A stretch of 41,407 bases of DNA, from IMG/VR virus record IMGVR_UViG_3300048074_000118, one strand, 5' to 3'. Positions 23,857 to 41,407 of the stretch are shown piece after piece; within the stretch, counting starts at the first letter, position 1, and every line of letters starts with the position of its first letter. The translations under genes were made by a program, and so were the position numbers. This DNA comes from a virus. Below the pieces are notes generated by a model. That model was not told the DNA's origin and made no database searches. It saw nothing but the letters and a program-made list of their open reading frames with translations.

Positions 23857-24747
23857 ATGAGTGGGAGTCTTCATGACCAAGATCCAGCTGCAGGTCGTCG
23901 TCGAATCGTGGCGGATCTCTCCCCCGAAGGTCCCTCAGAGCCTCCTGGCTCCGAGCACACCGATCACGAGTCATTCCGCCGCTTTTTCTCGAACCCACTC
24001 GTCGGCGTGATCGGCGCCGTAGCAAGCTTGTGCGGCGTAGCCCTCGCGATCTATTTCTACTCCATGTCCACAAACACTCGTGAGCTCACCTATATGGTCC
24101 ATCCAGTCAAGGCAGTTGTCGTGCGGGGTGGACAGACATCCAGACTATCGATCACGTTGGATGGTCGACCCGTCCAGGGCGACGTGACGACTGCACAAGT
24201 CGCATGCTGGAACGCTGGCCGGTCTTCGATTCGGAAGGACCAGATCCTTCGACCGGTCGTCCTTCGGACGAGCCCGCCAGTCCCAATTGTCGATGCCACG
24301 ATCCGCAAGGAAACGCGCCCCGATATCACCAGGCTGTGTTTGGACAAGAGCAACTTTCAGGGTGGAGAGGTCGGGGTCTCATGGAACATCATGGAGGGTA
24401 ACGATGGTGGAGTGATCCAACTCGTCTTCATTGGGGACACCAAGACCGAAGTCATTCTAGATGGGACCATTGAGGGTCAGCGTGCGGTTTCCAGAAGCAA
24501 GGGGAGGCCCCCCGATGGTGATCTCGTCTTGACAGTCGGGAGACGTAGATTCCTCACCTACTTTTTCTTCACAATGATCATCATTTCTGCCCTTAGTGCT
24601 ATCAGTAACATAATGCGTTTTGTCAGGCGGCGGAAGCAGCGGATAGGCCGCTTCGTGGCCGACATCGCAGCGGATGTCTTCCTCGCTGGAATCATAATTC
24701 TCTTCTATGTCCGCTCCCGTGCGTCAGGGCCGCCATTCGGATTCTGA
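23857..24747 (+). CDS. 3-TM membrane protein with beta-rich extracytoplasmic middle domain (296 aa)
   Basis: GAGGAGAA RBS 12 nt after the cI stop. TM segments 'LVGVIGAVASLCGVALAIYFY', 'FLTYFFFTMIIISALSAISNIM' and 'ADVFLAGIIILFYV'. Confidence 0.7.
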   Translation: MSGSLHDQDPAAGRRRIVADLSPEGPSEPPGSEHTDHESFRRFFSNPLVGVIGAVASLCGVALAIYFYSMSTNTRELTYMVHPVKAVVVRGGQTSRLSITLDGRPVQGDVTTAQVACWNAGRSSIRKDQILRPVVLRTSPPVPIVDATIRKETRPDITRLCLDKSNFQGGEVGVSWNIMEGNDGGVIQLVFIGDTKTEVILDGTIEGQRAVSRSKGRPPDGDLVLTVGRRRFLTYFFFTMIIISALSAISNIMRFVRRRKQRIGRFVADIAADVFLAGIIILFYVRSRASGPPFGF

Positions 24748-24801
24748 GGCAGCACCATCATGCTGATTCAGAGTACAGTCCCGATTCTAGAGAGGTGGAA
24801 T

Positions 24802-25023
24802 ATGTACTGTCCGAACTGCGGTTCCGTGGCAGAAGCCAAGCGCCACACCAAAGGTTCGTTCCTAGTCGAGTTGCTCCTCTGGCTCTGCTTCCTCGTCCCA
24901 GGGCTCATCTACTCAATCTGGAGGTTGACGACGCGCTCAACGGTCTGCGGAGTCTGCAAGAGTTCCGGCGTGATTCCTGAGAACTCGCCCAGGGCGAAGG
25001 AAGCCCTTGCCAAACCCCGATGA
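24802..25023 (+). CDS. Membrane zinc-ribbon protein, CxxC - hydrophobic - CxxC (LITAF-like layout, 73 aa; alternative ATG at 24760)
   Basis: 'MYCPNCGS...FLVELLLWLCFLVPGLIYSIW...CGVCKS'. GAGAGGTGG RBS. Confidence 0.65.
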   Translation: MYCPNCGSVAEAKRHTKGSFLVELLLWLCFLVPGLIYSIWRLTTRSTVCGVCKSSGVIPENSPRAKEALAKPR

Positions 25024-25625
25024 AGACCGACGACGTCCTCAACCCCGCCTTCACGGATGACCATTTCGTCGTCTGGCTCATACCAGGCTCGATCGCTCTC
25101 TTGCCGTGGGTGTTCGTCCTCCACCACTACGTCTCACTTTCACGTGCTTGGAGGGACCACGAGTGGATTCTGGGAATAGGATTCCTACTCGCCGCCTCTG
25201 GACTCGGAGCCCTTGTCGAGAGCTTTGGCGGGTGGATAGAGAGCGAGAACTATGACAAGAGACTCGAGACTGCGAGGGAAGGCCACACGGACGAGTGGTA
25301 CGAGTACCTGGTCACTGCCATCCCAGCCGACTTGGTTGTCCATCGCTATGTGCGTCACCGGGTCCGCCTGATGAAGTTCGAGATCAGCGTGGGCATTGCT
25401 AGTCCCGCCGCGCTCGTCGCATGCTGGTGGCTCCGAGGCTTGGACTTGGCCTTCAGCTGGCCCGGACTCGTCGTCCTGACGATCCTGGTGGGCGCGCTCT
25501 GCAGGTACCTATTCTGGGACGCCTTCAAGATCGCGGAGATCCTCTCGGACATCAGAATGCGGCTCCTGACGATCCATCGTCAGGCCGGCGCTGTGCCCCA
25601 GGTGCCCCCCGCGCGAAACCCTTAG
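25020..25625 (+). CDS. 4-TM integral membrane protein (201 aa)
   Basis: ATGA-coupled to the previous gene. Four hydrophobic helices, with a charged loop between TM2 and TM3. Confidence 0.65.
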   Translation: MKTDDVLNPAFTDDHFVVWLIPGSIALLPWVFVLHHYVSLSRAWRDHEWILGIGFLLAASGLGALVESFGGWIESENYDKRLETAREGHTDEWYEYLVTAIPADLVVHRYVRHRVRLMKFEISVGIASPAALVACWWLRGLDLAFSWPGLVVLTILVGALCRYLFWDAFKIAEILSDIRMRLLTIHRQAGAVPQVPPARNP

Positions 25626-25641
25626 AGAAAAGGAGCCGTAG

Positions 25642-26454
25642 ATGTCATCCATCCCCGCCAAGGTCGAGACTCGGATCAAGACTGAGGTGAAGCGCTACCG
25701 CGGCATCATCGAGTCAGCGAAACTCAGGGACGTCAATGAAGCCGACACCTCGATCATCGTGACCGGGGTTCTCGCGGATGTCCTCGGGTGGGATCGGTTC
25801 ACGGACGTCACCCGGGAGTACTGCGTCCGCAACACCTTCTGCGATCTCGCCGTCAAGGTGGACGGGAGGGTGAAGATCTTCGTCGAGGTCAAGGCGATCG
25901 GGCTGAGCCTCAAGGACACCCACCTACGGCAGGTGGTGGACTACGCCACGAAGGAGGGCGTGGACTGGGTCATCCTCACGAACGGTGCGATCTGGAAGGT
26001 CTTCAAGGTCCTCTACGAGAAGCCCATCAACCAGCAGGAGGTCTTCGAGGTCGACCTCGTCGACACCGCCCTTCGGCCGGCGGCCCTGGTCGACAAGCTC
26101 TACCTGATCACGAAGGAGGGCGTCTCGAAGTCCGCGATCGCCTCCTACCATGAGCAGAAGCAGGCCACCAGCCGGTTCATGATCGCAGCCACCCTGTTGT
26201 CCGAACCCGTCGTCGAGGCGCTCCGCCGGGAGATCCGCCGCGTGAGCGGCGGCGTCCGCCTCGAGGCCGACGAGCTGCAGGAGATCCTAAAGGCCGAGGT
26301 CCTCAAGCGTGAGGTCCTCGAAGGCGACCAGGCGAAGGAGGCCAGCGATCGGGTGAGGAGGGCCTCGGGGAAAGCACTCAAACGCGCGGCTCCGATTGAC
26401 CGGAGCGATGATGACAATGTTCAGGATCCGCCTCCGGAGAGCGGGAGTGCTTAG
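25642..26454 (+). CDS. PD-(D/E)xK nuclease, HsdR-N-terminal-like domain + C-terminal helical region (270 aa)
   Basis: Core 'FCDLAVKVDGRVKIFVEVKAIG' (D...E-x-K) followed by 'DYATKEGVDWVILTNGAIWKVF'. AAGGAG RBS. Confidence 0.7.
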   Translation: MSSIPAKVETRIKTEVKRYRGIIESAKLRDVNEADTSIIVTGVLADVLGWDRFTDVTREYCVRNTFCDLAVKVDGRVKIFVEVKAIGLSLKDTHLRQVVDYATKEGVDWVILTNGAIWKVFKVLYEKPINQQEVFEVDLVDTALRPAALVDKLYLITKEGVSKSAIASYHEQKQATSRFMIAATLLSEPVVEALRREIRRVSGGVRLEADELQEILKAEVLKREVLEGDQAKEASDRVRRASGKALKRAAPIDRSDDDNVQDPPPESGSA

Positions 26455-26959
26455 ATCCCTGACATTATGGTGGTCCGCCCTCGGGCACACGCGCAGGAGG
26501 CAACTGGCTCGAATCGCGAACGCCCCGCTCACAATCCTCCTCATCTCGGCGGTCTTGATTGTGGTCGGTCCGGAGTGCTACAGCGATCGTCAAGACCAGA
26601 ACCTCAGGAGGCGTGAACGTGATGCCGCGGTTCGGACCTTGGATCTAGAGATAGCGGAGCGCGTCAGACACCTGAACCTTGAATTTGCTGACAATCTGAG
26701 CATGTTCTATAACGGCCGTCTAAGTGAAGTGCCTGATGAGAGGAGCTTTCACGCGCTCTTCCCAGAGTACCAAGCTCGCTCCCTGCGCTCCCTTCTTCTT
26801 CAGCTCGAGGACCTGGTCGAAGGAAGAAGAACTGTTGAGATCAGGGCGGTGATAGACGCCACAGAGCGAATAGAGCTGCAGCCAAATGAAGCGGCGGACA
26901 CCTCCGCCGTGCGCACCTACTTGGAGCTACTCCGAGCCAAGTGGGGCTCGCAGGACTGA
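26408..26959 (+). CDS. Single-TM protein with helical soluble domain (about 183 aa; start uncertain: 26396/26408/26417)
   Basis: TM 'LTILLISAVLIVVG'. Overlaps the nuclease gene's 3' end and stops 11 nt before the integrase. Confidence 0.5.
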   Translation: MMTMFRIRLRRAGVLRSLTLWWSALGHTRRRQLARIANAPLTILLISAVLIVVGPECYSDRQDQNLRRRERDAAVRTLDLEIAERVRHLNLEFADNLSMFYNGRLSEVPDERSFHALFPEYQARSLRSLLLQLEDLVEGRRTVEIRAVIDATERIELQPNEAADTSAVRTYLELLRAKWGSQD

Positions 26960-26970
26960 GGGTGTCCGGC

Positions 26971-28494
26971 ATGCGCGCCGCCATCTACGCCCGTGTCTCC
27001 TCGCAACGTCAGGCGGAGAAGTGGAGCCTCGGCGCCCAGCGGAAGATCCTCGCCGAGCATGCGAATAAGCAGGGGTGGTCGAGTACCGTCTACGACGAGG
27101 GCGCTGCATCAGGCGAGACGATCGCCGATAGACCCGTCATGCGCCGACTGCTGGCCGACGTCGCCGGCGGCCGCGTGGATGTCATCCTGGTCATCGAATG
27201 GGAGCGCCTCTGCCGCGCCTCGGATCTCATCGACCTCGCCACGATCACCGGCGCGTGCCGACGTGCCGGCGTCCTGATCGCCACCCCCGAGCGGACCTTC
27301 GACCTGGCCAAGGCTGAGGACGACTTCGAGTCAGACCTCCGCGGGATCCTTGGGAAGCGCGAGAAGCGGAAGCTCCTGGAACGGTGCGCCCGCGGCCGGG
27401 CAGAGGCGAAGGACGCCGGCAAGTGGCTCGGCGGCCGCGCCCCCTGGGGCTACCGCTACGACAAGGAGGCTGGCACCCTGGCCATCATCAAGGGCCGAGA
27501 CCGGATCGTCCGGGAGGTCTTCGCCTCGGAGTTCGGAGGGCGGACCCTCCATGCGAACTACCGGGCCAAGGGCCTCGTCATCTCCGAGTACACCCTCCAC
27601 CGGATGCGCCGCAACCTAACCTACGCCGGCAAGATGAAGAATTCCAAAGGCCAGATCATCGACGGCGCTTGGCCGCCCATCGTGACCTGGCAGGAGTGGC
27701 AGGCCGCCCAGCCGGCGATCGAGGCGCGCCGCACGGGAAGGCCCTACCAGGCGAAGTATCTGCTGACCGGGCTCATGCGCTGCGCCGGCTGCGGGGGCCC
27801 GATCGTCAGCCGCCGGTGTGGGAGCTCCATGCAAGGCGACCGTCGCGCCAGCGAGTTGTCCTACATCTGCAAGGTCTGGCAGCGGAGGCTCGGCCCCTGT
27901 GCTGCGCCCGGGAGCATCGCGGGGTGGGCGGCCGAGATCCTGGTCCTCGATGCCTGGGAGCGCTTAGTCTCCGATCGGACCCTCCTGCGGACGGGCTACG
28001 ACGCTCTCCTGGCCCGCCAGAGCCCCGATCCCGAGGGGGGCCGCACCATCGCGTCGGAGGAGGCCCTCCGATCGCTGGCCCTGCGGCGCCACAGGCTCCT
28101 GGATGCCTTGGAGGAGGGAGTCGTGGCCCATTCTGACATCCGAGACCGGCTCCGAGAGATCGATGCCCAGACGGCCCTCCTGGAAGCGGAGAAGGACCGG
28201 GAGGCGCGCGCCAGGGCGAACTCGGCTGTCCTGCCCTGGCGAACCTTGCTCGCGCAGCTGCGGGCCTTCCCAGAGGCCCCCACCCCCCAGCGTCGACTCA
28301 TCCTGCGGGCCTTCGCTGAGTCGATGATCCTGGACTTCGGCGAGCGCCGCCTCGCGGTGAGCTGGCGCTTCGGCGAGCATGGGCCTATGCTGTACCGGCT
28401 TCCCAACCTCCACTCCCTGGTCAATCGGACGACCGGGACCGTCGAAGCGCAACGGCGTCTGCAGGCCTCCGTGGCTGACTACAGGGAACTGTAA
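26971..28494 (+). CDS. Large serine recombinase (phage integrase, 507 aa)
   Basis: 'MRAAIYARVSSQRQ' resolvase catalytic N-terminus, a recombinase domain ('GGRAPWGYRY'), a zinc-ribbon 'CAGCGGPIV...' and a coiled-coil C-terminus. Confidence 0.9.
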   Translation: MRAAIYARVSSQRQAEKWSLGAQRKILAEHANKQGWSSTVYDEGAASGETIADRPVMRRLLADVAGGRVDVILVIEWERLCRASDLIDLATITGACRRAGVLIATPERTFDLAKAEDDFESDLRGILGKREKRKLLERCARGRAEAKDAGKWLGGRAPWGYRYDKEAGTLAIIKGRDRIVREVFASEFGGRTLHANYRAKGLVISEYTLHRMRRNLTYAGKMKNSKGQIIDGAWPPIVTWQEWQAAQPAIEARRTGRPYQAKYLLTGLMRCAGCGGPIVSRRCGSSMQGDRRASELSYICKVWQRRLGPCAAPGSIAGWAAEILVLDAWERLVSDRTLLRTGYDALLARQSPDPEGGRTIASEEALRSLALRRHRLLDALEEGVVAHSDIRDRLREIDAQTALLEAEKDREARARANSAVLPWRTLLAQLRAFPEAPTPQRRLILRAFAESMILDFGERRLAVSWRFGEHGPMLYRLPNLHSLVNRTTGTVEAQRRLQASVADYREL

Positions 28495-28534
28495 GGCTCA
28501 TTGAGCGATCGCTCTATCCATCGCAGTCTGAGCC
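28495..28534. other. Candidate attP: 40-bp imperfect dyad next to the serine recombinase gene
   Basis: GGCTCA (28495-28500) / TGAGCC (28529-28534) at the ends. 13 of 20 arm positions are symmetric. Contains the perfect palindrome GAGCGATCGCTC (28503-28514). Confidence 0.3.
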
Positions 28535-28566
28535 CCTACTTCAGATGTTGACTACTCACTTACGGA

Positions 28567-28830
28567 CTACCGGTAGGCGTCGCGGCGGTAGCGAATGGCC
28601 AGGACGTCGACGATCCTTGCCCCGGCATCACAGTCGAAGAAGATCCGGTGGTCACCCTTTCGATATCTATAGAGTCCCTCGAACTTCCCGTACAGAGGTG
28701 CGACATGAGGGTTGTGCCAAGTTGGATCGCGCTCCAGATCCTTAAGCGCGTCCTCAACCAACTCCAGATCCTTGCCTTTCAAGGCCTCGTAGTACTTCAG
28801 GGCCTTCTTCTGGAGCCTGACCTCATACAC
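28567..28830 (-). CDS. relE: RelE/ParE-family type II toxin (87 aa)
   Basis: '...LERDPTWHNPHVAPLYGKFEGLYRYRKGDHRIFFDCDAGARIVDVLAIRYRRDAY' matches the RelE/StbE style ('YRxRxGDYRIIy'). Confidence 0.8.
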   Translation of the reverse strand: MYEVRLQKKALKYYEALKGKDLELVEDALKDLERDPTWHNPHVAPLYGKFEGLYRYRKGDHRIFFDCDAGARIVDVLAIRYRRDAYR

Positions 28831-28833
28831 GGT

Positions 28834-29154
28834 TCAATGTTTCCTGAGACTCCGCCATTCGACTCCGGGCGAAGACTCGGCCCGGGCTTCTACGATCTCT
28901 TCCAACAACCCTTCAAAGGATTCGGCATCCTGAGTTGCAGCGATTCCCGCCTCGAACTTCCGCGTGATCTCGTCCCTCAGCCTCTCTGACATATGAATCT
29001 CGAACCACGGAATGACCTTCACCATGGGTTCATCGCACGACGGATTGGTGCGACCAGCGTCCCCTGCAAGATCCTTCCTAGCCAAGATCCGATCAGTCAA
29101 CTGTCCATAGTCGGGCCCTTCGGGAGAGAACGTCTCTGCGGCTTTGTTAGTCAT
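28834..29154 (-). CDS. Putative antitoxin (106 aa)
   Basis: Directly upstream of relE (3-nt gap). ATGA-coupled to the gene before it. No family recognised. Confidence 0.5.
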   Translation of the reverse strand: MTNKAAETFSPEGPDYGQLTDRILARKDLAGDAGRTNPSCDEPMVKVIPWFEIHMSERLRDEITRKFEAGIAATQDAESFEGLLEEIVEARAESSPGVEWRSLRKH

Positions 29155-29564
29155 GGCTTGCTCTTCTCCACGTCGAATTTGGTGCTCCCTATGGACTCAC
29201 CTTGCCAAAGGACGTCAATTCGGTGTTGTCCCAGGGTCGTGACGGGAAACTGGGGGAACCTAAAGACCATTTCGGCTACAACCAAGGGGCTCTTCGCATG
29301 AATCTCCCCCTCAATCACCAACTTCTCGCCCCCCTCGTTCACGGGAGCGATCTCCAGTTTGAGACGAGTCTGCTCTTGCAGGTTCGTAATGGCCAGATAG
29401 ATGGCCATTCCCATATGGAGGGCTGGAACGGAGTTGACCCCGATCTTGCTGAAGATCCCTATAAGGGACCATTTGTTGGTTTCTTGTTCACGGATTGCGC
29501 GGTCACAGACCACGACCGCGACAACAACTGGTTTTCTGGGATTCGGCTTAGCCACGGTATTCAC
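29151..29564 (-). CDS. DUF6941-like beta-sandwich protein (137 aa, GTG start), first gene of the three-gene TA operon
   Basis: Pattern 'VVVCDRAIREQETNKWSLIGIFSKIGVNSVPA...' followed by alternating beta strands. The family assignment is from memory. Confidence 0.5.
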   Translation of the reverse strand: MNTVAKPNPRKPVVVAVVVCDRAIREQETNKWSLIGIFSKIGVNSVPALHMGMAIYLAITNLQEQTRLKLEIAPVNEGGEKLVIEGEIHAKSPLVVAEMVFRFPQFPVTTLGQHRIDVLWQGESIGSTKFDVEKSKP

Positions 29565-29703: not shown

Positions 29704-29904
29704 CTACTTATCCCATTTTTGGACCCACCCACTGGGGCGCCTCCTCACCCGCGAGACGGTCTCGGGGCGAGTACTTGTCTCCCGGGTTAGAGATCTTTCT
29801 TCACTTTGACTCGAGAGGCGCGCGGCTCGCTCCGGCAGGGATCGGATGAGCGGCTGCCCCAGGATGTGGATGGCTGCCAGACAGTACACCTCGAGGTCGA
29901 GGGC
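29704..29904 (-). pseudogene. Decayed second copy of the terL 3' end (last ~66 codons)
   Basis: Encodes 'ALDLEVYCLAAIHILGQPLIRSLPERAARL...RRRPSGWVQKWDK'. The live TerL reads 'ALDLEVYCLAALHILGQPVIRSLPERAARL...RRRGWVRGWES'. An in-frame TAG (29905-29907) sits immediately upstream, and farther upstream there is only indel-ridden similarity. Confidence 0.8.
29819..29901. repeat. Imperfect direct repeat, copy B (partner 31211..31293; constant offset 1,392 bp)
   Basis: Perfect blocks GGCTGCCCCAGGATGTGGA (29852-29870 = 31244-31262) and GCCAGACAGTACACCTCGAGGTCGAG (29876-29901 = 31268-31293). Confidence 0.9.
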
Positions 29905-30000
29905 CTAACGCTCGCAAATTCGCACCCTATTTGCTGGAAGCGGGAGAAGGACAGGAGGCGAGAAGGCTGACAGTGCCCCCAACGAACCCTCGAAGTTTGC

Positions 30001-30492
30001 TTACCCCTCTCGGCCTCGACGTGACATGCCAATCCCGTAGCCACCAATGAACGACATCAACGCGATGGCGACCCCGATGAGGAGTTCTCTCTGATTCGTC
30101 CGCACCGCATACCAGAGGACAAGCAAGAGAGCGACTAGGCCAACCAAGAAGTAGCCGAAGAAGTTGTACTTCCGGACCTCGCGGCGCTCCTCGCATTCCT
30201 TGTCCGTCTGCTTTCCGATGAAGCCAATGATCTGGGTCACGTGTTCAGAGGTGAGCTTGCTGGCGATCGGGTTGGCCGCTGGACCAGAATAGATGAGGGA
30301 GTGGACGGTAGATTCGATGACTTCCCGTTGCTCGGGGGGAAGCTTCCGCAGGACCTCTGGCAGTTCCAACGCGGAGGGGTCTACCTTGCTCGCCTGCTCG
30401 GGCGGCGCGGGGAACCCTGGGGCTAAGGGGCTGGAGACGTCACCTGGGTTCTCTGGACCGGATTCCGGGCGCTGGCCGTGAGATGAGACCAT
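30001..30492 (-). CDS. DUF2335-like membrane protein (163 aa, two C-terminal TM helices)
   Basis: 'LELPEVLRKLPPEQREVIESTVHSL...' followed by 'FFGYFLVGLVALLLVLWY' and 'LLIGVAIALMSFIGGYGIG'. GGGGAGGGGAG RBS. Confidence 0.6.
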   Translation of the reverse strand: MVSSHGQRPESGPENPGDVSSPLAPGFPAPPEQASKVDPSALELPEVLRKLPPEQREVIESTVHSLIYSGPAANPIASKLTSEHVTQIIGFIGKQTDKECEERREVRKYNFFGYFLVGLVALLLVLWYAVRTNQRELLIGVAIALMSFIGGYGIGMSRRGREG

Positions 30493-30504
30493 TCTCCCCT
30501 CCCC

Positions 30505-30906
30505 TCACTCTGCGAACGGATAGATGAACTCCCCGAGGCCGCTGGGACGCCCCAAGTTCCGCACGTGCCGATCAAGCGTATTCTCTAGCACGGCCGGAAT
30601 GATTCCGGTCAGGTAGGCAGCGCACAGATACTTCAAGAGTGTCTGCAGATCCTGCTCGGACAGCTTCGCCTGCGCCCGAAGTTCATCGACGTACTTCACA
30701 CCATTCAGGAATAGCGAAGTCTGAGAGCGCAAACTCCTCTCCGACTCCACCGACCGAGAACACATCCCGGAACTGCTGAAGAGGAAGCGCCTCGGATGCG
30801 GGGGATAATGGGAACAGGCCTGGTGGGGCCATGAGTGCTTCATTCGCGACTCCCGAGCGGCGATTGTCAGATTGTCTTCGAGGAACTCAATTGAATCCTT
30901 CGGCAC
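30505..30906 (-). CDS. Hypothetical protein (133 aa from GTG 30906; the ORF-track version of 184 aa runs through a palindrome-rich stretch)
   Basis: AAGGGGGGGG-ATAAA-GTG start context. Only the C-terminal half ('LFLNGVKYVDELRAQAKLSEQDLQTLLKYLCAAYLTG...') looks convincingly protein-like. Confidence 0.4.
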   Translation of the reverse strand: MPKDSIEFLEDNLTIAARESRMKHSWPHQACSHYPPHPRRFLFSSSGMCSRSVESERSLRSQTSLFLNGVKYVDELRAQAKLSEQDLQTLLKYLCAAYLTGIIPAVLENTLDRHVRNLGRPSGLGEFIYPFAE

Positions 30907-30944
30907 TTTATCCCCCCCCTTGAGCGCCGGTTCGCGAACTTGAA

Positions 30945-31043
30945 GATGGGTGGGAAGATAATGCGATGCACCCATCCTTGCAAGGGGTATACCCCCTAAG
31001 CCTCCGGTTTGCTCCCGACATCCGGCGACGGGTCGGGAAACCC
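30945..31043. other. Cluster of four strong palindromes/stem-loops just downstream of terL (terminator, recombination site or structured RNA)
   Basis: GATGGGTG(30945-52)/CACCCATC(30969-76). CCTTGCAAGG (30976-85). GGGGTATACCCC (30984-95). TCCCGAC(31013-19)/GTCGGGA(31032-38) with an inner CCG/CGG stem around a GCGA loop and outer GGTT/AACC pairing. Confidence 0.6.
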
Positions 31044-31101
31044 GCGCGCGAGATCTCATGGGATCATAATGGCATAAACTGCAATGGGTTGCGTCTCGCC
31101 C

Positions 31102-33051
31102 TCAGGATTCCCAGCCCCGGACCCAGCCCCGCCGCCGAGCCCGCCCCATCCGGCGAGCCTGATGAGGCTCTCCCGCCACCTCTCCGGTCGGTTGGCCTTC
31201 CGGTGTGAGTCGAGCCGCCCTCTCCGGGAGGGACCGGATCACTGGCTGCCCCAGGATGTGGAGTGCCGCCAGACAGTACACCTCGAGGTCGAGCGCCTCA
31301 TTGCGCTCCCGCAACTTGATCCACTCCCGCACCCGGCCCCGGTTCCTCAGCCACTTCCAGATCGCCTTCTCGGCGGTGAGCTGCTCGAGATACTCGACGT
31401 CCACCCAGTCCGGGAGGTGACAGTAGCCGGGCCCCTTCGTGCGGATCCGCAGGCGCGACAAGATGATGTCCTTGGCGGTGTCGACGCAGAGGGTGAAGAG
31501 CTTCGCGTGGTAGCGATTGTGGGTGGTCGGCCGCTTGGGCACGACCGGCTTCCCCTTCTCGTTCCCGCCGCGCACCGCGAAGACGCGGCGGTGGAGCCGG
31601 GCGCGGCAGAACTTGTAGACCTCCTCGGTGTGGTGGCCACCGGAGTCGACCGTGACGCAGGAGACCTTCACCTTCCTGCCGCTCTCATGCACGAACTCCT
31701 GGGTGAGGAACTTGTCGAGCTCGAGCCAGGTGGACTCGTGAACCGGATCCCCGTGCACCTGGTGGAAAGCGATCAGCCAGGACTCCTCCCCGGCGCCGTA
31801 CCCCTTCACCTGGGCTTCGAGGCGATCGCCCTGGACGTCGACTGCAGCGACGAGGATCCCGACGCCGGCGGGAACCTCGGCGACGTAGCTTTCGAGCCGG
31901 CCGACTAGACTGTCGGCATCGAGGGAGTCGCCGCGCTCCTCCCAGGTCTCGCCGAGGACGGTATTCACCCAGGCCTGCAGACGGAACGGATCCTCCTTCG
32001 CCTCGAGGAACTCGGACACACACTCCGACCAGGACTTCCACCCGAGCGGTGAGTAGAGGGCGGAGAGGTGGAACCCGACTGTCCGGCCCGTGCTCTTCGC
32101 GGTGGGGCGCCATTCTCCGCCGGCCAGCATGAGAGCCTTGTACCGCTCATCGATGAGGCGCTCGCACGCGACGCAGGCCAGCTTCGCCGTCTCCGGGCGC
32201 GCCTCTTCCCATCGGATGTTCTCCCAGCGGATCCAGTCGAAGTGGCCACAGTGGGGGCAGGCCACGAAGTAGCGCCGTTGGTCCGAGGCCAGGAATTCCT
32301 TCTCGATGCGCGAGACTCCTTTAACCGTAGGCGTGGAGGTCATCATGATCTTGCGCCGCGGAAAGGTGGCGGTGCGTTTCTCGGCGAGGGAGACCGGATC
32401 CCCTTCCTCGTCGACGTTGCCGGGGTAGCGGTCGACCTCGTCGAGGAAGAGATAGCGCGCCGGCATGCGGGACAAGCCCTTGGCGGAATTAGCCCCCGTG
32501 ATGGCCAGGATCCCGCCAGGAAACTCCTTCATCAGGGTCGTGTTTCCCGAGTCCCGTGACCGCGCCTCCTTCACCAGTGCGCGCAGCGCCGGCGTCTCGG
32601 CGATCATCGGAGAGAGGCGTTGCTTGCTCTCCGCGCGGGCGAGCTCGACGGTGGGCTCCACAAAGAGGATCGGCCCGGGCACATGATGGATGATGTAGCC
32701 CATCGTGTTGTTGAGCGACTCGGTCTTCCCAACTTGGCTCCCGGCCATGAAGACTACGCGCCGAGCACGGTTGTGAGCCGACATGCAGTCCATCGGCTCC
32801 CGGAGGTAGGGCGTCCTCGAGGTGCGCCAGGGCCCCGGCTCGCTCGAGGTCATCGAACTCAGGACGCGGTGCTCATCCGCCCACTGGCTGACCGTGAGGA
32901 CCGGGTCCGGCGCGAAGCCGCGGGCGGCGGCGTCGAAGACGATCCATCGCCCGCGACGGCGCTGCTCTTCTCGCTCCGGATCGTCTTCGATAAGGCTGAG
33001 CTCAGCTGGTTCAGGACTTCGCGTATCGCGTCCTCGAGGATGTCGTGGCAC
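31102..33051 (-). CDS. terL: Terminase large subunit, lambda GpA family (649 aa, GTG start)
   Basis: 'LTVSQWADEHRVL', Walker A 'FMAGSQVGKTE', 'YLFLDEVDRYP' and zinc-ribbon 'YFVACPHCGHFDWIRWENIRW'. Confidence 0.92.
   Translation of the reverse strand: MPRHPRGRDTRSPEPAELSLIEDDPEREEQRRRGRWIVFDAAARGFAPDPVLTVSQWADEHRVLSSMTSSEPGPWRTSRTPYLREPMDCMSAHNRARRVVFMAGSQVGKTESLNNTMGYIIHHVPGPILFVEPTVELARAESKQRLSPMIAETPALRALVKEARSRDSGNTTLMKEFPGGILAITGANSAKGLSRMPARYLFLDEVDRYPGNVDEEGDPVSLAEKRTATFPRRKIMMTSTPTVKGVSRIEKEFLASDQRRYFVACPHCGHFDWIRWENIRWEEARPETAKLACVACERLIDERYKALMLAGGEWRPTAKSTGRTVGFHLSALYSPLGWKSWSECVSEFLEAKEDPFRLQAWVNTVLGETWEERGDSLDADSLVGRLESYVAEVPAGVGILVAAVDVQGDRLEAQVKGYGAGEESWLIAFHQVHGDPVHESTWLELDKFLTQEFVHESGRKVKVSCVTVDSGGHHTEEVYKFCRARLHRRVFAVRGGNEKGKPVVPKRPTTHNRYHAKLFTLCVDTAKDIILSRLRIRTKGPGYCHLPDWVDVEYLEQLTAEKAIWKWLRNRGRVREWIKLRERNEALDLEVYCLAALHILGQPVIRSLPERAARLTPEGQPTGEVAGEPHQARRMGRARRRGWVRGWES
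31211..31293. repeat. Imperfect direct repeat, copy A (inside the live terL)
   Basis: See the partner entry. Confidence 0.9.
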
Positions 33052-33572
33052 TGGGCCTCCTCGGTAGTCGCCGCCATGGCGGAGGCCAGGCGGGCCGGCA
33101 GGGTGTTGAAGGCGTCGCGCGCGGCGCGGCTGGCCTCGTAGATGTCGCCGGCGAGCGCCTCGCCCGCGATGACCAAGCCGGCTTCCCGCTCATAGTTGAG
33201 CCTGGCCATCTTGGCCAGGAACTTCTCCCGCTCCCCGCGCGCCTTCGCGTACGAGCTGAGGGGCTCCGGGTCGTGACCGTTGCCGGTGGGAGACTCGTCC
33301 TCTGTCGTCGCCGACGCCGCCCGCCGGGGCCGGGTCGCCCCCATCGGCGTGGAAGGTGCGCCTGGTTTCCGGCGCAACTTGGGATCCCCAGTGACGGAGT
33401 TCAGCGGCTTCGAATGGTCGGTCCGCTCTGCCCACTGTTTGTCAGCCCGAGCGGAGTCGATCTTCCCGTCCTTCCGCCTGGTGATCCTGCCGTCCGCGAT
33501 CGCCTTCTGCACCGCGGTCTGGGAGACGCCGCGGTGCCGGGCGTAGGCCCGGATGCTCAGAAGGGGGGGCAT
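32859..33572 (-). CDS. terS: Terminase small subunit (Nu1/MerR-like HTH N-terminus, 237 aa as an open frame)
   Basis: 'LLSIRAYARHRGVSQTAVQKAIADGRI' HTH. Directly upstream of terL. The last 64 codons overlap terL in another frame. Confidence 0.7.
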   Translation of the reverse strand: MPPLLSIRAYARHRGVSQTAVQKAIADGRITRRKDGKIDSARADKQWAERTDHSKPLNSVTGDPKLRRKPGAPSTPMGATRPRRAASATTEDESPTGNGHDPEPLSSYAKARGEREKFLAKMARLNYEREAGLVIAGEALAGDIYEASRAARDAFNTLPARLASAMAATTEEAQCHDILEDAIREVLNQLSSALSKTIRSEKSSAVAGDGSSSTPPPAASRRTRSSRSASGRMSTAS

Positions 33573-33758: not shown

Positions 33759-34580
33759 TCACAGGCCTTGCCCCCTCGAGAACTCGATCGCCTTGATGAC
33801 CTCCCTCTCCATCTCCTCTCTGAACCAGGCACGCGCGGTTGCCTGAGCCACGGGCACGAACTCGAGGCGGCTGTCGATGGGCGCGCTCTTGGCAAACTTG
33901 TAGAGCATCTCGACGTCGCTGTCCTTGGGGCCAGTGCGGCGGAAGACGCCGCCGAGAGGGGCGCGTGCCGAGCTCGTGAGGAGGAAGGTGCGGCTGCGGC
34001 CCTTCCACTGGATCCCACCTCCTGAGTCGGGCAGGCCGACTCTGCCGAACTCGTCGAAGAGCCCGATGCCTACCTTCCGCGTCTTGTTGCCCTTGCGGCG
34101 CTCGCGGGTGAGGCGCTTGCCAGCATGGAAGGCCTTCAGACCCATGCCGGCGAAGGTGTACTCGCGTGACACTGGCTCACCCATTGAGGGCCTCGCCCTG
34201 CCCGTGAGCGGGATTGCGAAGGTAGGCGAACCCTGCCGCGGCGTCTTGGTGCCCCCGCGCTCGAAGATGGAGAGCAGGAGACGGCGCTGGCTCTTCATGT
34301 CCGCAGCCTGTGCCACAAAGACTTCTGCAAAGGGGCGCTGCTGCTTAACGGAAGGGAACGGCTTGATGCGAGCCGCGACCCCACCGGGCCGGCCAGGAGC
34401 GCCGAAGAAAAAGCGCTCGTTGCGGATGTTGAATCTCTCACGGACGCTCTGGAACTCGGCCTGCTGAACGCGCAGCACAGTGGCCCTGATCGCGTTGACG
34501 GTCGCGTAGGCCAGCCGCTTCTCCCCGTTCCGTAGCTTCAGCAGCAGCTGGGTGTTATCGATTTCGACGTTGATCTGCAC
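33759..34580 (-). CDS. Hypothetical virion-morphogenesis-like protein (273 aa, GTG start with GAGAGGAG RBS)
   Basis: Clean coding composition. The N-terminus loosely resembles HK97-gp10-style proteins. No firm family call. Confidence 0.45.
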   Translation of the reverse strand: MQINVEIDNTQLLLKLRNGEKRLAYATVNAIRATVLRVQQAEFQSVRERFNIRNERFFFGAPGRPGGVAARIKPFPSVKQQRPFAEVFVAQAADMKSQRRLLLSIFERGGTKTPRQGSPTFAIPLTGRARPSMGEPVSREYTFAGMGLKAFHAGKRLTRERRKGNKTRKVGIGLFDEFGRVGLPDSGGGIQWKGRSRTFLLTSSARAPLGGVFRRTGPKDSDVEMLYKFAKSAPIDSRLEFVPVAQATARAWFREEMEREVIKAIEFSRGQGL

Positions 34581-34869
34581 GGCCGCTCCTCTCTTGGGAC
34601 GCGAGGCGTTCCATCTCGCTTCGATGCTGGTAGATGGCGCTGATGCTAAGCCTGCCCGAGGAAATCGAGGATAGCGCCCGGGCACGGTCGGGGCGGGGGG
34701 TAGTGCCTGCGAGCCACGAGTACACGGCTCCAGGGGTGACGGCCGTGTTGGGGTCGCGGCCGAGCTCCTGAACGATGGAAGCCACCGTCATGCGGTTCAC
34801 CCAGCGTCCGAACCGGGTGCGCCATCTGAACTTTTCCCTTCGATACACGCAGAGTGCCCTCCTGGACAT
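34555..34869 (-). CDS. Small HTH DNA-binding protein (104 aa; Cro/YdaS-like)
   Basis: 'TVASIVQELGRDPNTAVTPGAVYSWLAGTTPRPDRA'. Preceded by terminator hairpins, so it probably heads its own transcription unit. Confidence 0.5.
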   Translation of the reverse strand: MSRRALCVYRREKFRWRTRFGRWVNRMTVASIVQELGRDPNTAVTPGAVYSWLAGTTPRPDRARALSSISSGRLSISAIYQHRSEMERLASQERSGRADQRRNR

Positions 34870-40900: not shown

Positions 40901-41407
40901 TCAGTCCAGCGCGACGGCCAGGAAGTCGTCGCGGTCGGTTCGGGTGATGTTGTGCAGGACCATCCAGTCGACGGCCCCGAGCCTCAACAAGGTCTCGGCG
41001 GTGAGCCCTTGGCCAGTCACAGCGGCAACGCCTCGCAGCTGACCAATCGTGTTCGGTGCGGCCGCGTTCAGCATCACTGGCCACAGCGCGTAGGAGCCGT
41101 CCAGATTGACATCGAGGAGACTCAGGCCGCAGCGATACGGCCAGACGACGTTCTTGTAACTCGCCGGCGTGCCGGACACGCCGTCGTTGCTGCTGGCCTC
41201 GAAAGGCAGCCAGACGCCGTCAAGCCCCCTGGCGGCAAGCTGTGAATCCTCCGGCTCAAGGGGCGAAGTCTCGCTCAGGGTATCCGCGTGCGTCGGCATC
41301 CGATGATTGTCTGTCGTGTTGGACCAGCGATAGGACGTGCTCTCCAGGGTCGGCGGAGCTTCGGTCAGAGCCAGGGAAGCACCCAGGGCCAACGGATAGG
41401 GCCACTG
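40901..41407 (-). CDS. C-terminal part of the wrap-around 531-aa tail protein (stop TGA at 40903..40901)
   Basis: The ORF track shows only a TTG-initiated 163-aa piece. The frame stays open to the window end and joins 1..1216 through the 127-nt overlap. Confidence 0.8.
   Translation of the reverse strand, partial: QWPYPLALGASLALTEAPPTLESTSYRWSNTTDNHRMPTHADTLSETSPLEPEDSQLAARGLDGVWLPFEASSNDGVSGTPASYKNVVWPYRCGLSLLDVNLDGSYALWPVMLNAAAPNTIGQLRGVAAVTGQGLTAETLLRLGAVDWMVLHNITRTDRDDFLAVALD
41281..41407. repeat. Terminal direct repeat, right copy (identical to 1..127)
   Basis: Same comparison. The repeat lies inside a coding frame, which argues for an assembly overlap of a circular molecule. Confidence 0.97.

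Follow-up and report, generated by a model that had tools for sequence, protein, structure and literature searches.

Most boundaries in the mosaic genomes of phages have non-homologous joins as their accepted source (PMC3029335). Mosaics of illegitimate recombination, together with the accessory genes known as morons, are described from lambdoid phages and mycobacteriophages. A second class of systems comprises islands and prophages that rebuild the 3' end of their target, as do the elements of tRNA and tmRNA genes. In phage lambda, the C-terminal domain of the terminase subunit gpA binds the prohead (Aam42 work; PMC4856287 and references therein). Here we analyzed a locus that touches on all of these, in which a fragment of the terminase gene terL lies downstream of an intact terL. 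The locus belongs to a stretch of viral DNA of 41,407 nucleotides (IMG/VR record IMGVR_UViG_3300048074_000118), referred to as the window.

The intact terL gene and its tail

The live terL (31102..33051, minus strand) encodes a GpA-type large terminase of 649 aa, about 90% identical to the terL of the relative L001, and is the final gene of the late operon of this phage. It possesses both the N-terminal GpA_ATPase domain (PF05876, E 1.3e-96) and the C-terminal GpA_nuclease domain (PF20454, E 6.5e-91). Exact-protein look-up with the 649-aa sequence gave no match, probably because the gene callers' version has a different start. The C-terminus reads ...ALDLEVYCLAALHILGQPVIRSLPERAARL...RRRGWVRGWES. 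The codons of ALDLEVYCLAALHILGQPVIRSLPERAARL form the live copy of a 92-nt repeat (31207..31298, minus strand; repeat family D2), and the remaining tail (31102..31206, minus strand, GC 0.73) consists of a hypervariable linker, a conserved RRGWVRGW end and the stop codon. Terminase tails throughout the family share this architecture, in which the linker is hypervariable and the GW[VI]xxW end is conserved. Lambda gpA is a member of the same terminase family with ATPase and nuclease domains, and the window terL likewise ends in a short conserved motif after a linker. Unlike in lambda, we infer the portal contact of the GW[VI]xxW motif in the window family only by likeness (PMC4856287), by which the live tail would be the prohead/portal-binding end.

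A second terL end downstream

A preliminary description of this DNA had reported a diverged copy of the last 66 terL codons 1,392 bp downstream of the live copy. We recovered this copy by tblastn as an open frame of 66 codons plus stop (29704..29904, minus strand), ending in ...RRRPSGWVQKWDK. The 92-nt core at 29815-29906 shows 85% identity to 31207-31298 at a spacing of 1,392, and is the longest internal direct repeat of the window. The alignment contains the perfect blocks of 26 nt (CTCGACCTCGAGGTGTACTGTCTGGC) and 19 nt (TCCACATCCTGGGGCAGCC) that had been described, and the in-frame TAG at 29905-29907 does lie directly upstream of the remnant. At the protein level the copy matches the live tail along its full 66 residues and keeps the terminal GWVxxW motif; the E value, about 1e-17 to 1e-18 within the window, lies far outside what chance would give. 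The remnant holds only the last ~18 residues of the nuclease domain and the tail, and has no Pfam match. It lacks the full domains and the start codon of a working GpA-type terminase. No plausible start codon or ribosome-binding site was found, and no gene was called here in three assemblies, in agreement with a non-translated fragment of terL.

The junction between the cassette and the remnant is present with 100% identity to the window in the contigs L015 (Logan SRR35514047), L016 (JGI 3300049437) and L017 (JGI 3300048565). Since three independent assemblies give it exactly, the junction is not an assembly artefact. The remnant and the intact terL are found side by side in a complete circular genome.

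The two copies differ at 12 codons, with ten synonymous and two conservative non-synonymous changes (P=1.3e-4 against neutrality). Over a 90-nt core, the live copy, the remnant and the L001 gene are equidistant, with 14 differences in each pair. This equidistance and the substitution pattern denote that the live copy and the remnant were both working genes when they diverged, each in its own lineage of one subclade. Judged by its sequence, the remnant is a fragment of a once-functional terL from the same subclade as the live gene. Because both copies diverged under purifying selection, the remnant records recombination between related phages and not a duplication in place.

Homology to terL ends sharply at 29905-29908, and nothing significant was found upstream of the TAG; genuine terL genes remain about 90% identical farther upstream, which marks the position as a truncation joint. 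The identical 26-nt block begins 4 nt from this boundary, with one mismatch (position 3) in between, and is the most DNA-conserved part of the terL gene family-wide. Within the block, the synonymous combination GTG-TAC-TGT is common to both copies and rare elsewhere (2 of roughly 60 other loci). Similarity between the copies drops after ...PERAARL. As read from the family's sequences, this drop coincides with the linker, which is hypervariable in the family as a whole, and is neither a swap boundary nor a recombination joint. For the same reason, the differing terL tails need not mean a functional swap. Base composition and distance to L001 are uninformative as to which copy is native.

The cassette between the two terL ends

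The cassette opens with a non-coding leader of 195 nt (30907..31101, minus strand) containing local hairpins and a promoter-like site, TTGCAA-17-TATCTT at about 30960-30990, that was spotted by eye. A strict consensus scan detected neither promoter nor terminator in the cassette region, and no Rfam family was matched. The leader had been described as palindrome-rich, but its RNA structure does not exceed that of shuffled sequence (fold z -1.09). The first gene of the two-gene module, ORF133 (30505..30906, minus strand), was called as a 133-aa gene in L015, and the start chosen earlier agrees with the gene callers. Its single reading frame is backed by an in-frame GC3 signal, and the possibility of a frameshifted pseudogene was rejected on that signal. 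ORF133 aligns weakly to partner genes of about 110 aa in L080 and L081.

The second gene, ORF163 (30001..30492, minus strand), encodes a small protein with two C-terminal transmembrane helices. Homologues were found in 513 representative clusters (E<=1e-3), and their alignment displays conserved motifs. No family was assigned to ORF163 from Pfam, PHROG, PADLOC or NCBIfam. It had been called DUF2335-like, but DUF2335 (PF10097) matched neither ORF163 at E<=10 nor any of 10 homologs at E<=0.01; its resemblance to that family is one of topology, with the two C-terminal helices and an SGPxPxP motif. Modules of the ORF163 type are found elsewhere as two-gene units close to integrases, as expected of mobile cargo. 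The ORF133/ORF163-type membrane module is widespread and unannotated.

A spacer (29905..30000, minus strand) follows ORF163 and ends in the junction, where the TAG marks the abrupt start of terL homology. Neither direct nor inverted repeats mark the ends of the 1.39-kb segment. Neither of its genes carries a recombinase or nuclease domain, including HNH, GIY-YIG, LAGLIDADG or similar homing-endonuclease domains, in Pfam, PHROG or NCBIfam, and neither matches a PADLOC defence system. The serine recombinase sits outside the segment bounded by the repeats, past the remnant.

The cargo island and the integrase neighbourhood

A low-GC island of 2.6 kb occupies the interval from terL to int and comprises the two-gene module, the remnant, a DUF6941 gene and a ParE toxin-antitoxin pair. 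Its base composition (GC 0.54-0.60) deviates from that of the backbone (0.65-0.69), and it sits between genes that are adjacent in L001, both being features of moron or accessory cargo. The DUF6941 gene (29151..29564, minus strand) matches PF22091 (E 3.5e-17). The ParE/RelE-like toxin (28567-28830, minus strand) matches Pfam ParE_toxin with 29.2 bits (cutoff 23) and the RelE-like phrog_1213 (E 3.6e-17), and it has an adjacent small partner of 106 aa upstream (28834-29154, minus strand), the arrangement of a type II pair. The partner matches no family, so its assignment as a candidate antitoxin is positional only.

The integrase gene (26941..28494, plus strand), convergent with terL, encodes a large serine recombinase with Resolvase, Recombinase and Zn_ribbon_recom domains, all above the Pfam cutoffs. 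Between the stops of int and ParE lies a gap of 72 nt (28495..28566, no strand) with an imperfect inverted repeat, I3, and this gap is a candidate terminator or attP. At the DNA level, only the N-terminal third of int can be aligned to the int of L001. The C-terminal part is swapped, and so is the cargo on the far side of int. The neighbourhood is heavily mosaic.

Search for relatives and parental forms

Relatives of terL were sought in IMG/VR, JGI metagenomes and GTDB genomes, and L001 was the only close relative with a usable downstream region. In L001, which also carries a serine recombinase, terL is followed by a gap of 94 bp and then int. The preliminary description had anticipated a relative free of the cassette in which terL would continue directly into the remnant sequence. 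L001 does lack the cassette, but it also lacks the remnant, DUF6941 and ParE and is therefore not the predicted form; what varies is the 2.6-kb island as a whole. In none of the relatives found does terL continue into remnant sequence.

Neither a second terL end nor any island or cassette gene at terL was present at any of 60 family loci, which points to a one-off event. No terL carrying a tail of the remnant or the live type was found when the remnant peptide or a chimera of terL and remnant served as query. Neither tail was matched by tblastn against isolate phages or in a tail-only alignment to about 130 family tails. Exact-protein look-ups with ORF163, ORF133 and DUF6941 yielded nothing beyond copies of the same phage, and scans of IMG/VR with the three proteins gave no match. 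Two of five short terL proteins from the remnant search were checked as analogous stubs and rejected: P0001 (L019) runs off the end of its contig, and P0004 (L018) was left behind by a deletion in a decayed prophage. These comparisons establish that the stub is a terL fragment with an independent functional history, that the island is missing from the relative and that the event is unique.

Origin of the downstream copy

The downstream copy is most likely a recombination scar between related phages with different accessory genes at terL. On balance, we favour a one-off non-homologous join of two such phages in a cargo hotspot as the probable event. The interval from terL to the integrase, which abut in this phage group, would be that hotspot. 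One parent would have carried a terL ending in ...RRRGWVRGWES and then the ORF133/ORF163 module; the other, a terL ending in the remnant-type tail and then DUF6941 and the ParE pair. A single non-homologous or microhomology join would have fused the cargo of the first parent, at its end, to the terL of the second at about codon 584. The product would retain one complete terL and both cargo sets, with a promoterless and start-less stub of 66 codons in between. In this scheme, we infer how the join formed and which genes each parent carried.

Recombination of two related phages at a conserved stretch had been proposed before. The codon pattern upholds the involvement of related phages, but recombination at a conserved stretch alone leaves no duplication, and at least one join, at about 29905-29908, must therefore have been non-homologous. 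Neither parental arrangement was found, which counts against the single join. Two further observations weigh on the same side: the rare GTG-TAC-TGT combination could mean crossover or gene conversion and not simple kinship, and the fully open remnant frame fits a recent event but also selection. The comparison for the single join rests on one close relative, L001.

An unlikely alternative is a Campbell-type insertion, in which a circular or linear DNA of 1,392 bp with a terL 3' end (from the ALDLEVY core), ORF133 and ORF163 recombined with the resident terL at the 26-nt block, through short homology or with the help of a trans-acting recombinase, so that a new tail entered and the original 3' end was pushed downstream. 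The sharp left boundary, the 26-nt identity and the subsequent divergence resemble the attL and attR of target-rebuilding islands, and the rare GTG and TGT codons are shared within the block. The remnant is also slightly nearer to L001, with 4 mismatches against 7 for the live copy over the last 30 nt of the core, and its tail alignment to L001 beats 499 of 500 shuffles against 209 of 500. This gives a weak hint that the remnant is the original end, though the mismatch difference is not significant. Identity of the 26-nt block is expected without crossover, given its conservation, and a mismatch lies between boundary and block. A donor with a pre-truncated terL end requires an earlier non-homologous join in any case. 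The proposed unit has no recombinase and does not recur at the 60 terL loci, and no relative with terL leading into the remnant was found. Such an event corresponds to the targeted insertion suggested earlier, which was not supported: the segment gave no sign of a targeted or self-mobile element, with neither recombinase, homing nuclease nor terminal repeats, and no counterpart of the cassette was seen at terL in 60 family loci.

We regard as improbable the further proposal of a cassette of 1,392 bp that has no integrase and moves between phages by recombination at the conserved 26-nt terL core, with its own tail to keep the packaging gene intact, or of an intact displaced tail that serves as a stand-by allele and returns once the cassette is lost. 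If true, either form would amount to cargo exchange directed at the 3' end of a terminase gene. Quite improbable is a remnant kept for function, whether as a stand-by tail activated by deletion of the cassette or as the gene-rebuilding arm of an att site for the serine recombinase. The intact frame, the conserved end motif, the solely conservative substitutions, the repeats in register with the 26-nt block and the recombinase gene at 1.2 kb from the remnant are all consistent with it. However, deletion between direct repeats is one-way and makes no switch, att sites of serine recombinases require no long homology, and dyad symmetry at the CTCGAG palindrome stops within 10-12 nt by eye. The remnant has no start codon, ribosome-binding site or gene call, and a second terL end is present in none of 60 relatives, including L001 with its own serine recombinase.

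Tandem duplication of the terL 3' end in place, after which the copies diverged and genes later entered between them, has very little chance of being correct. The repeats share orientation and register, but a divergence of 15% that is nearly all synonymous cannot accumulate in a non-functional copy, and L001 and the live copy are equally distant from the remnant. The substitution pattern effectively refutes this origin. Least credible of all is an assembly chimera of two co-occurring strains: related strains do exist in the sample series (the sample numbers of L001 and L007 are near those of L016 and L017), but the unique-to-repeat junction is spanned by the three further contigs, which come from different samples and were built by two assembly pipelines, and the 14 private differences of the remnant are contiguous with both its flanks.

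Comparison with known systems

Islands and prophages that rebuild a target 3' end share with this locus direct repeats made up of an identical block followed by diverged 3' ends, the gene being made whole by the upstream copy, with the downstream one displaced. In contrast to them, the window segment has no integrase, shows no recurrent use of the site and no empty site was found; its target is a phage gene and not a host gene. The decaying prophage L018, next to a mer operon, also contains an isolated C-terminal terL stub of the same family. That stub arose from internal deletion in a dead prophage, whereas the window stub adjoins an intact terL.

With the morons and mosaic joints (PMC3029335), the locus shares cargo of deviant composition between genes adjacent in a relative and a sharp homology breakpoint without any boundary sequence, next to an integrase. 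Unlike most mosaic joints, which leave no such marker, the join in the window fell inside the homologous gene of the partner phage, and a recognisable stub of 66 codons is present because of this. The stub dates and orients the recombination event, and it identifies the partner as a close relative and the event as recent. The tail architecture of terL and the ORF133/ORF163-type module are documented here as further features. The case is one of ordinary phage mosaicism and leaves the current understanding of mosaicism unchanged; it provides a clean, datable example of temperate phages stacking accessory genes beside the integrase.

Duplication of the terL 3' end

The terL repeat and the recombination footprint it carries are real. 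A 92-nt core in the live terL (31207-31298) recurs at 29815-29906 with 85% identity and a spacing of 1,392, and a repeat scan identified it as the longest internal direct repeat of the genome. Within this core lie the perfect 26-nt and 19-nt DNA blocks common to both terL ends. The downstream copy (29704-29904), hereafter the remnant, translates into 66 residues which match the terL C-terminus end to end, including the terminal GWVxxW (tblastn E ~1e-18). An in-frame TAG (29905-29907) stands directly before it, and terL homology stops sharply there; genuine terL genes are still about 90% identical further upstream. The remnant possesses neither a usable start codon nor a ribosome-binding site, and was called as a gene by no gene caller. 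The junction between cassette and remnant is 100% identical in three contigs of the same phage (L015, L016 and L017) that come from other samples and other assembly pipelines, and an assembly chimera was therefore ruled out. The preliminary description of a terL 3'-end duplication at 29704-31302 was borne out except for two details: ORF163, presented as DUF2335-like, gave no DUF2335 match, and the non-coding stretch, presented as palindrome-rich, showed no unusual folding in an RNA structure test. The DLEV codons of both copies (31278-31289 and 29886-29897) form a perfect 10-nt palindrome, ACCTCGAGGT, with CTCGAG inside it; in the closest relative, L001, as in most relatives, the palindrome extends to 12 nt (GACCTCGAGGTC). 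It sits within the repeat, 7 nt from the boundary, and its dyad symmetry reaches no further.

Genome setting and the terL C-terminus

Bases 1-127 and 41281-41407 form a perfect 127-nt terminal overlap in the repeat scan of the window, which represents the 41,280-bp genome of a temperate phage, assembled as a circle. Its late operon on the minus strand carries a minor-tail-protein-like gene near its end (33759-34685) and terS (32859-33572, phrog_57), and is closed by terL (31102-33051), whose product has GpA ATPase and nuclease domains. The gene facing terL in convergent orientation encodes a large serine recombinase (26941-28494). The order orf308-terS-terL was found again in about 60 related IMG/VR loci, and terL is thus normally the final late gene of the group. 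In a decayed prophage (L018 7351-8342; ENA ERZ27256875 k141_2971008), fragments of an orf308 homolog are immediately followed by no more of terL than residues 561-616; a deletion has removed terS and the bulk of terL, and all that remains abuts a mer operon (MerR, MerT, MerA).

About 130 family members (P0001-P0126, L020-L079) share one C-terminal plan, consisting of a conserved helix (ALDLEVYxLAALxILG...PERAAxL), a hypervariable P/A/E-rich linker of 20-40 residues, a basic patch and GW[VI]xxW. When relatives are aligned at DNA level, the alignment typically breaks off about 91 nt short of the stop codon and often picks up again further downstream. The distal repeat edge, where similarity drops after ...PERAARL, is thus a property of the terL gene and not a recombination joint. 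Lambda gpA binds the portal through its extreme C-terminus (PMC4856287), and by analogy the terL end motif probably makes this contact.

Origin of the remnant

Across 30 conserved codons, the live and downstream copies show 14 nucleotide differences in 12 codons, ten of them synonymous and two conservative (L to I, V to L), a distribution with a probability of 1.3e-4 under neutral change. Any two of the live copy, the downstream copy and the L001 terL show 14 differences, and all three contain HILGQP[VL]IRSLPERAARL. Given these mostly synonymous differences and the three-way equidistance, the downstream copy evolved within a functional terL that belonged to the same subclade but to a separate lineage; its truncation is only recent. 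In-place duplication of the terL end is excluded on the same two grounds. Both cores use GTG for Val and TGT for Cys, a rare synonymous pair; GTC and TGC stand in 55 of 71 family rows. This sharing may be due to the two parents being closely related or to gene conversion over a short tract.

Cargo island next to the integrase

The repeat is located within a 2.6-kb island with a GC content of 0.54-0.60, the backbone being 0.65-0.69. On the minus strand the island comprises a non-coding leader, ORF133, ORF163, the remnant, a DUF6941 gene, a candidate antitoxin and a ParE/RelE toxin. In L001, with terL about 90% identical, terL is followed by 94 bp and then the convergent integrase gene, and the island is wholly absent. 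Homology between the window and L001 ends at 31207 and picks up again only in the N-terminal third of the integrase. On the far side of the integrase gene, too, low-GC cargo has been swapped: the window (23857-26960) carries ORF296, ORF201, ORF270 (phrog_17239, HSDR_N_2-like) and ORF187, and L001 (4730-5660) carries two lipoprotein genes instead. With swapped cargo on both flanks, the integrase neighbourhood is a mosaic cargo hotspot.

The serine recombinases themselves (window 26941-28494, L001 3183-4716) are 46% identical overall and align at DNA level only across the catalytic N-terminal third, where 493 nt are 77% identical. Their DNA-recognition part has been swapped, and the two phages therefore probably use different attachment sites. 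Imperfect inverted repeats occupy the short gaps beside the integrase stop codon (window 28495-28534, 15-nt arms; L001 3135-3180, ~14-bp stem); they could act as bidirectional terminators or be candidates for attP.

A word-indexed search matched only ORF163 itself, and an exhaustive search recovered 513 representative clusters for ORF163. This large, unannotated family has a YSGPxPNPIAxKVTSEHI motif, two C-terminal transmembrane helices and a GYGLG end. A gene of ~110 aa precedes the ORF163 homolog in three other contigs, two of them with an integrase nearby; in L080 and L081, the two contigs compared, this partner aligns weakly with ORF133. The cassette genes look like a recurrent, conserved two-gene phage cargo module (window 30001-30906, L080 3675-4458, L081 907-1731). 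Family searches of ORF133 (30505-30906) and ORF163 (30001-30492) revealed no recombinase, nuclease or known defence domain.

Explanations of the duplication

We favor, with some reservation, a non-homologous or microhomology join of two closely related temperate phages with different cargo downstream of terL. The cargo end of one phage would have been joined to codon ~584 of the other's terL, leaving a recombinant with a single intact terL, the cargo of both phages and the stub. The join itself could have created the TAG, by placing a T before the AG of an original GAG codon.

A targeted cassette insertion rebuilding the terL 3' end, as initially proposed, is improbable. The sharp boundary, identical 26-nt block and diverged remainder resemble attL/attR of a target-rebuilding island; the rare GTG-TAC-TGT combination in the block of both copies occurs in only two of ~60 other loci, and, over the tail and the final 30 nt of the core, the distance to L001 is marginally smaller for the remnant than for the live copy. 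However, no other part of terL is as conserved in DNA across the family as this block, so identity within it needs no crossover, and one mismatch separates it from the boundary. The cassette lacks a recombinase. Neither a second insertion nor an empty site, with terL running into the displaced 3' end, was found; L001 lacks the whole island. None of the 60 family loci has a second terL end (5 kb scanned on each side), island genes or the cassette downstream of terL. No direct or inverted repeats were found at the cassette ends, and tail searches and aligned family tails placed a live-type or remnant-type tail on no other terL. The absence of a second terL end, of end repeats and of these tails elsewhere points to a single historical event rather than a recurrent targeting system. 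Of the proposed targeted insertion or module swap, the recombination footprint stands, but a targeted element is not supported by the evidence. Retention of the stub for function, as a stand-by tail or att arm, is very unlikely and not backed by conservation.

The favored join agrees with the accepted view that most phage mosaic boundaries arise by non-homologous joins (PMC3029335), and the duplicated terL end is an instructive yet ordinary case of phage mosaicism at a cargo hotspot adjoining the integrase.
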